A DNA stretch of 64,000 nucleotides from assembly GCF_003334335.1 (NCBI RefSeq), contig NZ_QOWQ01000015.1; one strand, given 5' to 3'. This document shows, piece after piece, positions 9,030 to 46,126 of the stretch. A model generated the notes under the pieces. The model saw only the letters and a program-made list of their open reading frames with translations, was not told the origin of the DNA and made no database searches. This DNA comes from Escherichia coli. GTDB taxonomy: Bacteria; Pseudomonadota; Gammaproteobacteria; Enterobacterales; Enterobacteriaceae. The translations under genes were made by a program, and so were the position numbers. The stretch's first letter is position 1; each line of letters begins with the position of its first letter.

Positions 9030-9175
9030 GATTCGCCTGAACATGCCTTTTTTCGTAAGTAAGCAACATAAGCTGTCACGTTTTGTGATGGCTATTAGAA
9101 ATTCCTATGCAACAACTGAAAAAAAATTACAAAAAGTGCTTTCTGAACTGAACAAAAAAGAGTAAAGTTAGTCGC

Positions 9176-9284
9176 GTAGGGTACAGAGGTAAGATGTTCT
9201 ATCTTTCAGACCTTTTACTTCACGTAATCGGATTTGGCTGAATATTTTAGCCGCCCCAGTCAGTAATGACTGGGGCGTTTTTTA
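9176..9284 (+). ncRNA. spf: Spot 42 small regulatory RNA
   Basis: Sequence GTAGGGTACAGAGGTAAGATGTTCTATCTTTCAGACC...GCCGCCCCAGTCAGTAATGACTGGGGCGTTTTTTA matches Spot 42 from recall; ends in an intrinsic terminator. Confidence 0.92.
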
Positions 9285-10312: not shown

Positions 10313-10556
10313 ATAGAGCGAGGACGCTAACAGGAACAATGACTCAGGATGAGGGTCAGGAGCGCCAGGAGGCGAAGACAGAGGATTGTCAGGAAGACAA
10401 ACGTCCGGAGACGTAATTAAACGGAAATGGAATCAACACGGATTGTTCCGGCTAAAGGAAAAACAGGGTGTGTTGGCGGCCTGCAAGGATTGTAAGACCC
10501 GTTAAGGGTTATGAGTCAGGAAAAAAGGCGACAGAGTAATCTGTCGCCTTTTTTCT
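10313..10556 (+). ncRNA. csrC: CsrC, CsrA-sequestering small RNA
   Basis: About 245 nt with at least 13 GGA/AGGA motifs on the + strand and a 3' hairpin aggcgacagagtaatctgtcgcct plus T-run (10525-10554); matches CsrC by recall; ends are approximate. Confidence 0.85.
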
Positions 10557-10623
10557 TTGCTTGCTTTCTGTTAGATTCCGCCGCAAATCTATACTGAATA
10601 AAACGGCTAAAAGACGAACCATT

Positions 10624-12805: not shown

Positions 12806-12890
12806 TGTAGGCCGGATAAGGCGTTTACGCCGCATCAGGCATCTGAGCATGATGCCTGATGCGGCGCTGGTCGCGTCTTATCAGGCCTAC
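12806..12890. repeat. REP/BIME element pair
   Basis: Canonical REP motifs gtaggccggataaggcgtttacgccgcatcaggc and gcctgatgcggcgctggtcgcgtcttatcaggcctac in inverted orientation. Confidence 0.9.
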
Positions 12891-17443: not shown

Positions 17444-17532
17444 CGCACCATCGTGCAAAAGGGCTGCACCACGATGTGAATGTTGCACCAATATAGTGCT
17501 TCAATGGAAACATTAAGCACCATGTTGGTGCA
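17444..17532 (-). promoter_or_regulatory. NtrC (NR-I) enhancer binding sites upstream of glnAp2
   Basis: Palindromes GCACCATGTTGGTGCA (17517-17532), TGCACCAATATAGTGCT (17484-17500) and GCACCATCGTGC (17444-17455), centred about -140, -108 and lower relative to the sigma-54 promoter. Confidence 0.75.
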
Positions 17533-17683
17533 ATGACCTTTGGATAACCCTTTTTATGCTCCGTGAAAGCGATCACAAAGGGACTCTGCAATACTTGTTT
17601 GCGGAGGATGTTTGTGATCCTGTTTTGTAGTGCGATTAATCCGTGTACAATAACGCGCTATTTCTAATGCCTGAGGCAAAGTT

Positions 17684-19507
17684 GTGATCGAAAAATTGCG
17701 TAATATCGCCATCATCGCGCACGTAGACCATGGTAAAACCACCCTGGTAGACAAGCTGCTCCAACAATCCGGTACGTTCGACTCTCGTGCCGAAACCCAA
17801 GAGCGCGTGATGGACTCCAACGATTTGGAGAAAGAGCGTGGGATTACCATCCTCGCGAAAAACACCGCTATCAAATGGAATGATTACCGTATCAACATCG
17901 TTGATACCCCGGGGCACGCCGACTTCGGTGGTGAAGTTGAACGTGTAATGTCCATGGTAGACTCAGTGCTGCTGGTGGTTGACGCATTTGACGGCCCGAT
18001 GCCGCAAACGCGCTTCGTAACCAAAAAAGCGTTTGCTTACGGCCTGAAGCCGATTGTTGTTATCAACAAAGTTGACCGCCCTGGCGCGCGTCCTGATTGG
18101 GTTGTGGATCAGGTATTCGATCTGTTCGTTAACCTCGACGCGACCGACGAGCAGCTGGACTTCCCGATCGTTTACGCTTCTGCGCTGAACGGTATCGCGG
18201 GTCTGGACCACGAAGATATGGCGGAAGACATGACCCCGCTGTACCAGGCGATTGTTGACCACGTTCCTGCGCCGGACGTTGACCTTGACGGTCCGTTCCA
18301 GATGCAGATTTCTCAGCTCGATTACAACAGCTATGTTGGCGTTATCGGCATTGGCCGCATCAAGCGCGGTAAAGTGAAGCCGAACCAGCAGGTCACTATC
18401 ATCGATAGCGAAGGCAAAACCCGCAACGCGAAAGTCGGTAAAGTGCTGGGCCACCTCGGTCTGGAACGTATCGAAACCGATCTGGCGGAAGCTGGCGATA
18501 TCGTTGCGATCACGGGCCTTGGCGAACTGAACATTTCTGACACCGTTTGCGACACGCAAAACGTTGAAGCGCTGCCGGCACTCTCCGTTGATGAGCCGAC
18601 CGTTTCTATGTTCTTCTGCGTTAACACCTCGCCGTTCTGCGGTAAAGAAGGTAAGTTCGTAACGTCTCGTCAGATCCTGGATCGTCTGAACAAAGAACTG
18701 GTACACAACGTTGCGCTGCGCGTAGAAGAAACCGAAGACGCCGATGCGTTCCGCGTTTCTGGTCGTGGCGAACTGCACCTGTCTGTTCTGATCGAAAACA
18801 TGCGTCGTGAAGGTTTCGAACTGGCGGTATCCCGTCCGAAAGTTATCTTCCGTGAAATCGACGGTCGTAAACAAGAGCCGTATGAAAACGTGACTCTGGA
18901 CGTTGAAGAACAGCATCAGGGTTCTGTAATGCAGGCGCTGGGCGAACGTAAAGGCGACCTGAAAAACATGAATCCAGACGGTAAAGGCCGCGTACGTCTC
19001 GACTACGTGATCCCAAGCCGTGGTCTGATTGGCTTCCGTTCTGAGTTCATGACCATGACTTCCGGTACTGGTCTGCTGTACTCCACCTTCAGCCACTACG
19101 ACGACGTACGTCCGGGTGAAGTGGGTCAGCGTCAGAACGGCGTACTGATCTCTAACGGTCAGGGTAAAGCGGTCGCGTTCGCGCTGTTCGGTCTGCAGGA
19201 TCGCGGTAAGCTGTTCCTCGGTCACGGTGCAGAAGTTTACGAAGGTCAGATTATCGGTATTCATAGCCGCTCTAACGACCTGACTGTAAACTGCCTGACC
19301 GGTAAGAAACTGACCAACATGCGTGCTTCCGGTACTGACGAAGCCGTTGTTCTGGTTCCGCCTATCCGCATGACTCTGGAACAAGCTCTGGAGTTCATCG
19401 ATGATGACGAACTGGTAGAAGTGACTCCGACCTCTATCCGTATTCGTAAACGTCACCTGACGGAAAACGATCGTCGCCGCGCCAACCGCGCACCGAAAGA
19501 CGATTAA
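17684..19507 (+). CDS. typA: Ribosome-dependent translational GTPase TypA/BipA
   Basis: 607-aa ORF with GTG start at 17684 and GAGG Shine-Dalgarno at 17672-17675; G motifs [18 protein letters not shown]; recognised by recall. Confidence 0.95.
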
Positions 19508-19524
19508 TTTCGTTTTTTAGTCAT

Positions 19525-19557
19525 AAAAAACCTGCCAGCGATGGCAGGTTTTTTTTT
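19525..19557 (+). terminator. Rho-independent terminator after typA
   Basis: Hairpin cctgccagcgatggcagg flanked by A-run and followed by T9. Confidence 0.85.
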
Positions 19558-19723
19558 GCCTGTCGTGAGCGCACACCAATGCGAGTATCTCCCTTATAAG
19601 TCTGTGGTTACGTCAATAGAGAGCTTTGTCACAATTATCTGCAAAGTCATACGCCGTTAATTGCTTTCTTTTTTGGCGTAAGCGTAAGATGCTTCATCTG
19701 GTTTAAACCAAAAGGATTAAACA

Positions 19724-42048: not shown

Positions 42049-45000
42049 TTACACCTTTTCCACATTCACAAGGAAGGACTTAAACTCCGGCGTCTGCGTG
42101 TTCGCATCACCAACGAATGGCGTTAAAGTATTGGCAATAAAGCCTTTTTTAGCTACGCCTTCATAGCCCCAGTGAATCGGAATACCGATGGTATCGATAT
42201 CTTTGCCGTTCGCTTTCAGCGTGCGAATACGTTTGGTCACCACCGCTTTGGCTTTGATATAGCCACGGTTGGAGGAGACTTTCACGGTATCGCCCTGGGC
42301 AATGCCAAGTTTATTCGCCAGCGACTCCCCGATTTCCACAAACTGCTCTGGCTGCAAAATCGCGTTCAACAGCGCGTGTTTGGTCCAGTAGTGGAAGTGC
42401 TCGGTCAGACGATAGGTGGTTCCGACATACGGGAACTTATCGGCTTTACCCAATGCTTCGGCGTCGTCTTTAAAGATACGTGCAGCCGGGTTCGAGATAA
42501 CGTTTGGATGCAGCGGGTTAGTTCCCAGCGGCGTTTCAAACGGCTCGTAGTGTTCCGGGAACGGACCTTCCGCCATCTTATCGAGGGCAAACAGACGCCC
42601 CATGCCTTCCTGCTGCATGATAAACGGCCCGACGCCGCTACCCGGAGGCGCTGCGCTGTAGTCCGGAATATCCCAGCCGGTCCACTTAGTGCCGTCCCAT
42701 TTCAGCAACTGACGCTTCGGATCCCACGGGTTACCCTGCGGATCTGCGGAGGCGCGGTTATACAGAATGCGGCGGTTAAGCGGCCATGCCCATGCCCAGC
42801 CCAGCGTGTTACCGAGGCCAGACGGATCGGCGTTATCACGGCGTGCCATCTGGTTGCCTTCCGGCGTCCAGCTACCGGCGAAAATCCAGCAGCCACAGGA
42901 GGTTGTACCGTCATCGCGCAATTGGGCGAACGAACTAAGTTGTTGGCCTTTCTTGACGATAACCGCACCGGTTGCCGGATCGGTAATATCGGCCAGCGCC
43001 TTACCGTTGCTCTCCATCGCCACTTCTTCTGAAGATGGCTCATGCGGAATGGCGTAGTTCCATGTCATGTTCAGCACCTGGTCCGGGTTCGCGCCACCCT
43101 GTTCGGCATACATCTTGCGCAAGCGCAGGAAGATACCGGAGAGGATCTCGCCGTCAGTCAGCGCAATCCCCGGGGCGTCCGCACCTTTCCAGTGCCACTG
43201 TAACCAGCGACCTGAGTTAACGATAGAACCGTTCTCTTCCGCGAAGCAGGTCGATGGCAGACGGAACACTTCGGTCTGGATCTTCGACGAGTCAACTTCG
43301 TTCAGCTCACCGTGGTTCTGCCAGAAGTTAGAGGTTTCAGTGTTCAGTGGGTCGATGGTGACGAGGAACTTCAGTTTCGACAGACAACCGATCACTTTGT
43401 TTTTGTTCGGGAATGAGGCAACAGGGTTAAAGCCCTGGCAGATATAGCCATTGACCTTGCCCTCTTTCATCATCTCGAAGTATTGCAGGACGTCGTAGCC
43501 TTTATCCCACTTCGGCAACCAGTCAAAGCCCCAGCTATTTTCCGCCGTCGCTTTATCACCAAAGAAGGCCTTCATCATAGAGACGAAGAATTTCGGGTAG
43601 TTGCCCCAGTAGTTTACCTGGCCTTCCAGCAGCGGTTTTGGCGTGTTGGCGGTAAGGTAGGTTTGCAGATCGGTCTGCTTCTCGCTTGGCAGCGTCATGT
43701 AACCTGGCAGGCTCTGCGACAGCAGCCCCAGGTCCGTCAGCCCCTGAATATTGGAGTGACCGCGCAGGGCGTTAACGCCGCCGCCTGCCATCCCCATATT
43801 GCCGAGCAGCAGCTGGATCATCGCCATCGTACGAATGTTTTGCGCACCAACGGAGTGTTGCGTCCAGCCGAGGGCATACAGGAACGAGGCAGTTTTATCG
43901 TGAGCACTGGTTTCTGCGATGTATTCGCAGACTTTCAGGAACGCGTCTTTTGGCGTACCACAGATGTTTTCAACCACATCTGGCGTGTAGCGGGAAACGT
44001 GCTGTTTCAGCAAGTTCCACACGCAGCGCGGATGTTGCAGCGTGGTATCGCGTTTGGCGAAGCCGTTTTCGTCCAGTTCATAAGTCCAGGAGGATTTATC
44101 GTACTTGCGTTTTTCCGCGTCGTAGCCGGTGAACAGGCCATCTTCAAAGCCGTAATCCTCACGCACGATCAGGCTGGCGTTGGTATAGGCTTCGGTGTAT
44201 TCGCGGTTGAATTTTTCATTGTTCAGCAGGTACAGCAATACGCCTGACAGGAAAGCAATGTCAGTACCGGAACGAATAGGGGCATAGTAGTCAGCTACCG
44301 CCGCCGTACGCGTAAAGCGAGGATCGATCACAATCAGCTTCGCGCCGTTGTGAATTTTGGCTTCCATCGCCCAGCGGAACCCGACCGGGTGAGCTTCAGC
44401 GGCGTTACCGCCCATCACCACGACGAGGTTGGCGTTCTTGATGTCGACCCAGTGGTTGGTCATCGCACCGCGACCAAATGTTGGAGCAAGACTTGCTACC
44501 GTTGGTCCGTGTCAGACACGCGCCTGGTTGTCGACCGCGAGCATACCCAGCGCGCGGGAGAATTTTTGCGTTAAATAGCCGGTTTCGTTACTCGACGCGG
44601 AAGCACACAGCATCCCGGTGGAGAGCCAGCGGTTAACAGTCACGCCTTCGGCGTTTTGCGCAATGTAGTTAGCATCGCGGTCTTCTTTCATCAGTTTGGC
44701 GATGCGATCAAACGCCTCTTCCCAACTGATTTGCTGCCATTTATCAGAACCTGGCGCACGGTATTCCGGAAACTTCAGACGGCTTTCGGAGTGGATGAAA
44801 TCCACCAGGCCAGCGCCTTTCGGACAAAGTGCACCGCGGTTGACCGGGTGATCCGGATCGCCTTCGATATGGAAGATAGATGCTTTGGCGTTTTTTGCTC
44901 CGTCACCGAGGCTGTACATCAACAGCCCACAGCCTACGGAACAATAGGTGCAGGTATTACGGGTTTCGCGGGTGCGCAGCAGTTTATACTGCCGGGTTTC

Positions 45001-45099
45001 CGCGAGTGCTACGCTGGGTGCAAAACCCAGTGCCGCTGCCGTGGTGCCTGCCATACCGCCAGCGCAGATCTTAAAGAACTGCCTTCTGCTGACCTGCAT
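42049..45099 (-). CDS. fdoG: Formate dehydrogenase-O catalytic subunit, selenocysteine-containing (in-frame TGA at 44512-44514 read as Sec)
   Basis: ORF-track fragments 44512..45099 and 42049..44463 are in the same frame, separated only by TGA; the joined 1016-aa product reads ...VDNQARV-U-HGPTVASLAPTFGRGAMTNHW...; N-terminal Tat signal MQVSRRQFFKICAGG... Confidence 0.95.
44467..44514 (-). promoter_or_regulatory. Selenocysteine recoding site (UGA) with downstream SECIS-like hairpin in fdoG mRNA
   Basis: TGA codon (+ strand tca, 44512-44514) followed on the mRNA by CACGGACCAACGGUAGCAAGUCUUGCUCCAACAUUUGGUCG, which can form a stem-loop; position matches bacterial SECIS placement. Confidence 0.8.
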
Positions 45100-45292
45100 G
45101 GATTGCTCCTTGTTTCGACATTGTCACGTCCCATTTACATTCGCTTGCTGCGTGTGCAGGGAGTGGGAGTTATTTTTCTTTGCGGAAGGGGCCGCAAAGG
45201 TCCAGAATTGGCTCAATTTCCCTCCATCCAGGAAGGGTTTGTAACAGAATACCATAATGTTGGTGTGTGTGTTCTTATCTGGTTAAGAGAAA

Positions 45293-46126
45293 GTGAAAAA
45301 AACACAGCGAAAAGAAATCGAAAATGTGACAAATATCACAGGTGTTCGTCAAATTGAGTTATGGCGGCGTGATGATTTACAACACCCACGGTTAGATGAG
45401 GTCGCGGAAGAAGTTCCCGTTGCGCTGGTCTACAACGGCATTTCGCATGTGGTGATGATGGCGTCGCCCAAAGACCTTGAGTACTTTGCGCTCGGTTTTT
45501 CGCTTTCCGAGGGGATTATCGAAAGTCCGCGCGATATCTTCGGCATGGATGTCGTTCCTTCCTGTAATGGTCTTGAAGTACAAATTGAGCTTTCCAGCCG
45601 CCGCTTTATGGGGTTGAAGGAGCGCCGCCGGGCGCTGGCGGGACGTACGGGCTGTGGCGTATGCGGCGTGGAGCAACTTAATGACATCGGAAAACCGGTG
45701 CAGCCGCTACCGTTCACCCAGACGTTTGATCTCAACAAACTGGATGATGCATTACGTCATCTCAACGATTTTCAGCCAGTGGGGCAACTGACTGGTTGTA
45801 CTCACGCCGCTGCCTGGATGTTGCCATCTGGCGAACTGGTCGGCGGGCATGAAGACGTGGGTCGCCATGTGGCGCTGGACAAACTGTTAGGCCGCCGGTC
45901 ACAAGAAGGGGAAAGCTGGCAGCAAGGTGCGGTACTGGTTTCCAGTCGTGCCAGTTATGAAATGGTGCAAAAGTCGGCGATGTGCGGCGTAGAGATTTTG
46001 TTTGCGGTGTCTGCCGCGACCACGCTTGCTGTAGAAGTGGCTGAGCGCTGTAATCTGACACTGGTAGGTTTTTGTAAACCGGGTCGGGCAACGGTTTATA
46101 CCCATCCGCAGCGTTTGAGCAATTAA
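45293..46126 (+). CDS. fdhD: Sulfurtransferase FdhD (formate dehydrogenase maturation)
   Basis: 277-aa ORF with GTG start at 45293; conserved GCGVCG motif; divergent from fdoG. Confidence 0.93.

Follow-up and report, generated by a model that had tools for sequence, protein, structure and literature searches.

The DNA analysed here, hereafter the window, is a stretch of 64,000 nucleotides from Escherichia coli (contig NZ_QOWQ01000015.1) whose minus strand carries the genes of a formate dehydrogenase. The gene for the catalytic (alpha) subunit of formate dehydrogenase-O, fdoG (42049..45099, minus strand), has 1,016 sense codons, including a UGA at codon 196 that is almost certainly decoded as selenocysteine (Sec). 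On the same strand lie fdoH, encoding the iron-sulfur (beta) subunit (41134..42036; TIGR01582, 478.7 bits, and RefSeq annotation), fdoI, encoding the cytochrome b556 (gamma) subunit (40502..41137), and fdhE, encoding a formate dehydrogenase accessory protein (39576..40505; NF002925, 604 bits). The accessory sulfurtransferase gene fdhD (45293..46126, plus strand; TIGR00129, 340 bits, and annotation) is divergent from fdoG. The FdoI model (NF007924, 453.3 bits) describes the gamma subunit far better than the FdnI model (NF007558, 243.6 bits), which identifies the operon as that of FDH-O and not of FDH-N. The initial annotation had named the gene fdoG, and this name is borne out by fdoH, fdoI and fdhE downstream and by fdhD divergently upstream. 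RefSeq labels the alpha gene 'fdnG' despite its FDH-O operon partners.

The window is the reverse complement of positions 4418344-4482343 of NZ_CP032667.1, an MG1655-derived record, with 12 substitutions in the first 53.8 kb and a few more beyond, and with one 185-bp repeat-copy difference located far from fdoG. The fdoG sequence agrees at every nucleotide with the E. coli K-12 CDS encoding WP_010723259.1, and a segment of 3,252 nt comprising fdoG and its 5′ region recurs with 100% identity in several E. coli genomes, K-12 MG1655 derivatives among them. The gene was found in every one of the 5,426 complete E. coli genomes.

A mechanical list of open reading frames gives fdoG as two ORFs on the minus strand in one frame, 44512..45099 (195 aa) and 42049..44463 (804 aa). 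When 45099..42049 was translated as one frame, it contained 1,017 codons and two stops only, a TGA at codon 196 (44514..44512, minus strand) and the terminal TAA at codon 1017, the TGA being the sole internal stop in the frame of 1,016 codons. The downstream ORF is listed from its first ATG (44463), but sense codons begin at 44511. The minus-strand codons around the TGA read GCG CGT GTC TGA CAC GGA CCA ACG GTA GCA AGT CTT GCT CCA ACA TTT GGT CGC GGT GCG ATG; since all 16 codons from the TGA to this ATG are sense codons, the two halves of fdoG are split by the TGA alone. The initial annotation had proposed that an in-frame TGA joins two fdoG ORF fragments, and the single frame with no other internal stop agrees with this in full; the peptide that it gave across the TGA, DNQARV-*-HGPTVASLAPTFGRGAMTNHW, is found exactly in the translation. 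It had also held that a standard gene caller would report a truncated or pseudogene-like pair here. A naive ORF finder does split the gene, but RefSeq/PGAP annotates a single 3,051-nt CDS across the TGA (WP_010723259.1), so this part of the proposal fails for current pipelines. The N-terminus of the encoded protein bears a twin-arginine motif (SRRQFFK).

Each of the two fragments was compared with the NCBIfam model of the formate dehydrogenase alpha subunit, TIGR01553. The N-terminal fragment matched profile positions 1-194 (271.4 bits) and the C-terminal fragment positions 196-1009 (1278.8 bits; cut-off 814.2), the stop codon coinciding with the single profile position (195) skipped between the two matches. 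Because the matches follow one another in this way along the profile, the fragments are adjoining portions of a single protein. FdoG, with Cys substituted at the stop in the protein query, aligned over its full length to chain A of PDB entry 1KQF, the FdnG protein, with a score of 1902 bits. Codon 196 falls opposite a non-standard residue X of that chain, in the context ...NQARVXHGPTVASL..., and in that structure this X is SeCys196, the molybdenum ligand. Both the TIGR01553 match and the alignment to X of 1KQF confirm that the TGA lies in the conserved Sec-containing active-site region, as had been claimed.

Directly downstream of the TGA, and within the CDS, lies a SECIS element (44459..44517, minus strand) comprising the UGA and 53 nt downstream. 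The whole of the Rfam model SECIS_3 (RF01989; positions 1-59) matched the minus strand at 44517..44459 with 84.3 bits (gathering score 63, E = 1.3e-19), placing the UGA at model positions 4-6 with the coding frame open on both sides. It is the sole SECIS match in the 64 kb, and the element is kept in 5,426 of 5,426 complete E. coli genomes. The SECIS-like stem-loop that had been predicted directly 3′ of the UGA is thus present and scores above the curated Rfam threshold; the predicted span of 44467-44514 (the UGA and 45 nt) includes the whole hairpin, and the Rfam match is slightly wider (44459-44517).

The apical part of this element is an 18-nt stem-loop, GGUAGCAAGUCUUGCUCC (44483..44500, minus strand), that extends from G15 to C32 (nt 15-32, counting the U of the UGA as 1) and folds as ((.(((((...))))))) with -4.5 kcal/mol. 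Between the UGA and G15 there are eleven nucleotides (CACGGACCAAC); the bulged base is U17 (44498), and the 3-nt loop contains G23 (44492) and U24 (44491). In the account that a review (PMC8659212) gives with reference to Liu et al. 1998, the minimal E. coli SECIS consists of an apical stem-loop at a distance of 11 nt from the UGA, and SelB binding requires U17, G23 and U24. The fdoG hairpin has the same spacing, the bulged U17 and the loop bases G23 and U24, and from its sequence the stem-loop at 44483..44500 is probably the SelB-binding part of the SECIS.

The free energy of folding was considered as evidence for the hairpin and dropped. Compared with dinucleotide shuffles, the z-scores were -0.60 for 66 nt, -0.77 for 59 nt, -1.44 for 48 nt and -2.06 for the 18-nt apical hairpin, values of -0.6 to -2.1 that do not discriminate. 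Since the hairpin exceeds shuffled sequence in stability by a modest margin only, the argument for it rests on the covariance-model score and on covariation. The initial annotation had suggested folding the 45 nt downstream and comparing them with bacterial SECIS models; the comparison gave the 84.3 bits of SECIS_3, but the stability proved no better than modest.

A lower helix encloses the apical hairpin (44469..44509, minus strand), formed by nt 6-13 with nt 38-46 in the minimum-energy fold of 48 nt. In the register of the Rfam consensus it has two non-standard pairs in E. coli, A5-C45 and A9-G41, and in the E. coli minimum-energy fold it is shifted by one nucleotide from that register. Pairing across the 50 homologues, among the matches listed, amounts to about 85-86% in either register. 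The lower helix of the fdoG SECIS is thus weakly defined, and we did not adopt the Rfam register as a settled structure since the shifted register pairs equally across homologues. According to PMC8659212, the lower helix is dispensable for the minimal SECIS.

Homologous loci were collected by scanning the pattern GCNCGNGTNTGNCAYGGNCCNNNNGTNGC, in which the third base of the TGN codon was left free, over one genome per species (100,044 species). The pattern occurs once in the window and in none of 100 shuffles. The scan returned at least 120 loci, at least 109 with TGA and at least 11 with TGY (TGT or TGC). Among the matches listed, all 50 distinct sequences of the FdoG/FdnG type (HGPTVA...) have TGA. 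The gap-free covariation alignment, also made from the matches listed, consists of 49 FdoG/FdnG-type sequences and the window's own, giving 50 distinct rows. The SECIS region also codes for a highly conserved active-site peptide, which accounts for part of the nucleotide conservation.

Across the 50 distinct rows, homologues being those among the matches listed, the apical helix is 99.1% paired. At pair 18-30, G-C is replaced by A-U in 5 of the 50 aligned sequences, and at pair 21-27, A-U is replaced by C-G or G-C in 14 of 50, none of them unpaired (in both cases among the matches listed). The columns of these two pairs are all third codon positions (Val201, Ala205, Ala202 and Leu204), so the apical covariation is not dictated by the protein. 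None of 500 shuffles reached the observed covariation score, and when the 3′ partners were slid by 1 to 3 columns, pairing fell from 91.8% to 26-49%. The search pattern prescribed G16, U17, G19 and C20, and their invariance is circular for that reason. G23 and U24, which the pattern left free, are nonetheless invariant in the 50-row alignment of the matches listed.

The FdhF-type homologues offer a comparison between sequences with and without the UGA. Ten distinct FdhF-type TGA sequences among the matches listed form 6 of 6 apical pairs, and the 11 FdhF-type homologues with a Cys codon (TGY), likewise among the matches listed, form only 2-4 of the 6, which indicates that the hairpin goes with the UGA.

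The decoding machinery is encoded elsewhere in the genome. A tRNA gene search of the 64-kb window found none, and the annotation of the window contains no sel genes; for this reason, the presence of the sel machinery was deduced from the matching K-12 genome. NZ_CP032667.1, the K-12 record with which the window is collinear, has annotated selA, selB, selD and tRNA-Sec (selC) genes. A search for selA, selB, selC and selD had been proposed, and all four are present in this near-identical record. A tRNA-Sec query, which matched annotated tRNA-Sec genes at 100%, gave a match in 5,425 of 5,426 E. coli genomes. Soboh et al. 2011 (PMC3160892) describe each of the three formate dehydrogenases of E. 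coli as a selenocysteine-containing enzyme; in their work, the activity band of Fdh-N/Fdh-O disappears in a selC mutant and is weaker when fdoG is deleted. Elsewhere it is stated that Sec is encoded by the TGA codons inside fdhF, fdoG and fdnG (PMC11903333).

At fdoG we thus find a continuous frame, homology before and after the stop, alignment of the stop with Sec, the SECIS determinants, covariation of the hairpin, Cys homologues that are hairpin-less and selABCD in the matching genome. We hold it as nearly certain that the TGA at 44514..44512 (minus strand), the sole internal stop, which stands opposite X of 1KQF chain A and at the skipped profile position 195, is the selenocysteine recoding site (Sec196) of E. 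coli fdoG, accompanied by a SECIS. Binding of SelB, incorporation of selenium at residue 196 and the role of Sec as molybdenum ligand and in catalysis are matters that we infer or take from the literature.

Two other readings of the TGA were weighed against Sec recoding. If fdoG were a pseudogene produced by a nonsense mutation, the two ORFs would be decaying remnants, and the mechanical ORF list, which does give two separate ORFs, and the statistically unexceptional folding energy of the hairpin could both be read in this way. Decay, however, is hard to reconcile with a frame of 1,016 codons that the TGA alone disrupts and with two halves that both score at full-family level. Moreover, every one of the 5,426 complete E. 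coli genomes has the TGA and its downstream element, as do at least 109 of at least 120 homologous loci, reaching into distant bacteria; the SECIS scores above the Rfam threshold, the sel genes are present, and active, selC-dependent Fdh-O has been described (PMC3160892). The pseudogene reading is extremely improbable and, as judged from the sequences compared, is effectively refuted by the conservation of TGA and hairpin across phyla. Hardly more credible is that the UGA is a true terminator or is read through by a near-cognate tRNA, yielding a 195-residue protein or an enzyme with Trp or Cys at this position, with the hairpin acting as a generic, SelB-independent signal for read-through or pausing. 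UGA-to-Sec decoding is indeed inefficient in E. coli (review PMC8659212), a point in favour of this reading, and because of this inefficiency some truncated FdoG is to be expected, particularly without selenium. A generic signal would not, however, explain why the hairpin fits the specific SelB determinants (the 11-nt spacing, U17, G23 and U24), why it is absent where homologues code for Cys directly (among the matches listed), why the position is that of the Sec residue of the solved paralogue 1KQF, or why a selC mutant loses activity (PMC3160892). In practice, both the pseudogene and a UGA that terminates or is read through independently of SelB can be regarded as excluded.

A further rival touches one line of evidence only, the similarity between fdoG and its paralogue fdnG. 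The K-12 copies of the two genes share 77.0% amino-acid and 74.9% nucleotide identity, and where they have identical residues with degenerate codons, the same codon is used in 58% of cases. The longest stretch without any codon difference has 23 codons (the next longest has 12); this stretch begins at codon 195, one before the UGA, and spans the SECIS, and no run as long arose in 20,000 permutations. This block fits constraint at the RNA level, and a short gene-conversion tract could contribute to it. That the perfect 69-nt identity stems from recent gene conversion and not from RNA-level selection we regard as unlikely. It is true that divergence on either side of the 23 identical codons is ordinary, as a short conversion tract would give, and that the exact same 51 nt occur in many Enterobacterales loci among the matches listed. 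The identical block falls on the UGA and the SECIS, however, and not on an arbitrary segment, and the synonymous-site covariation across distant taxa shows a constraint at the RNA level with evidence that does not draw on the paralogues. As a speculation, to which we give a small chance, the lower helix of enterobacterial fdoG and fdnG may use a register one nucleotide off the Rfam consensus of Pseudomonas- and Burkholderia-type sequences (A9-U42 vs C9-G41, G8-C42), and the 69-nt identity may be kept by recurrent gene conversion, which together would amount to a lineage-specific tuning of the efficiency of Sec insertion.

Under Sec recoding, the UGA at codon 196 of the fdoG mRNA would not be read as a stop. 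Sec-tRNA(Sec), the selC product charged via SelA and SelD, would be held in a complex with SelB and GTP, which the apical SECIS hairpin would tether when the ribosome arrives at UGA196. SelB would then hand Sec-tRNA(Sec) to the ribosomal A site, outcompeting release factor 2; after insertion of Sec, the ribosome would proceed through the codons of the hairpin, and FdoG of 1,016 residues would result. This protein, which bears the Tat signal, would receive bis-MGD and a [4Fe-4S] cluster during maturation and be exported together with FdoH, and Sec196 would ligate the molybdenum of bis-MGD at the formate-oxidising active site.

The Sec recoding of fdoG is already known: it is textbook knowledge and is annotated in RefSeq, and its SECIS is in Rfam, so there is no novelty in it. 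fdoG is one of three classical E. coli selenoprotein genes, to which nothing scientifically new is added here. The practical value of the analysis is that of a positive control, in which a recoding event was located and interpreted correctly from raw sequence. Its checks were the continuous frame, matches that meet at the stop along the profile, the covariance-model match, synonymous-site covariation and the comparison with Cys homologues; they can serve again in cases with no answer known in advance.

Comparison with the known systems begins with E. coli K-12 fdoG (b3894) itself, whose Sec196 and SECIS are at the same locus with the same neighbours fdoH, fdoI, fdhE and fdhD, and which shows no difference at the feature. 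In fdnG (formate dehydrogenase-N, 1KQF), the UGA is also codon 196, the 69-nt block over the UGA and the SECIS is identical to that of fdoG, and the SECIS_3 score in the K-12 record is equal at 84.3 bits. fdnG differs in belonging to another operon, fdnGHI, which is nitrate-induced (PMC3160892); the gamma subunits FdnI and FdoI are told apart by the NCBIfam models. The Sec140 codon of fdhF (formate dehydrogenase-H) is the experimental model of the bacterial SECIS. As in fdoG, the UGA of fdhF is followed at a distance of 11 nt by an apical hairpin in which U17 is bulged and the loop contains G23/U24. Between the two genes, the first 8 nt past the UGA differ by one base (CACGGCCC vs CACGGACC); the mechanism should be alike, with SelB and Sec-tRNA(Sec). 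The two elements nevertheless belong to different Rfam families, SECIS_2 scoring 87.1 bits on fdhF but 28.1 bits on fdoG, and the apical stem of fdhF has 6 pairs and a 4-nt loop, whereas that of fdoG has 7 pairs and a 3-nt loop. The fdhF product is a cytoplasmic protein of 715 residues without a Tat signal, in contrast to FdoG, which bears one.

The fdoG gene of the window (42049-45099) corresponds to positions 4437245-4440295 of NZ_CP032667.1, the collinear MG1655-derived record (4202-7252 of L001, the locus excerpt from it), where its PGAP/RefSeq name is "fdnG: formate dehydrogenase-N subunit alpha". The same "fdnG" label is attached to the fdoG gene by RefSeq/PGAP annotation in all genomes listed. 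The operon partners of the alpha gene so labelled are nevertheless annotated as fdoH and fdoI, and it is the FdoI model that the gamma subunit fits. TIGR01553, the model behind the name, makes no distinction between FDH-O and FDH-N.

Upstream, the Rfam family RF02778 ("FdoG-1 5' UTR thermometer") gave a sub-threshold match to the fdoG 5' UTR and first codons (45070-45306, minus strand), scoring 36.4 bits against a gathering score of 50, with an E value of 2e-6 when 6 kb were searched. Because the alignment is best over the fdoG start codon with its Shine-Dalgarno sequence and over the conserved stretch that encodes the Tat signal, coding conservation may drive this match. FdoG needs the guanine dinucleotide form of the molybdenum cofactor, which is produced by the action of mobA and mobB. 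Both genes, identified as ORFs with annotation mapped from the matching K-12 record, lie on the minus strand (mobB, 183-710; mobA, 692-1276) about 41 kb from fdoG, all within the window.

Among the matches listed, genomes of Citrobacter, Enterobacter, Klebsiella, Yersinia and others carry FdhF-like paralogues with Cys (TGT/TGC) in ARV-C-HGPSVAGLQ... (loci L013, L024, L032, L041, L056, L061, L081, L104, L108, L113 and L117 of the genome pattern scan). In the matches listed, the same genomes also possess Sec-containing fdhF, fdoG or fdnG copies, and the SECIS hairpin is absent from the Cys paralogues. Of the roughly 10,830 hits that the SECIS or fdoG query gave in complete E. coli genomes, seven fell on plasmid records, exemplified by the SECIS match H29 (NZ_CP159530.1, 197044-197102, a 298,830-bp record), so that a few E. 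coli plasmids bear an fdnG/fdoG-like gene with the same SECIS.

Elsewhere in the window, several known small RNAs and repeats, namely Spot 42 (9166-9284), CsrC (10313-10566), ES222 (17495-17602) and STnc370 (19492-19560) on the plus strand, and two naRNA4 (REP) copies at 12810-12887 (plus) and 62603-62680 (minus), scored above Rfam gathering thresholds. Between rhaA and rhaD, a 92-bp REP-like unit is repeated in tandem 2.4 times (53587-53811, plus strand), and naRNA4 matches this array twice (53596-53666 and 53688-53758). Compared with the window, NZ_CP032667.1 has an additional 185 bp (two units) at this array, the only length difference between the two sequences.
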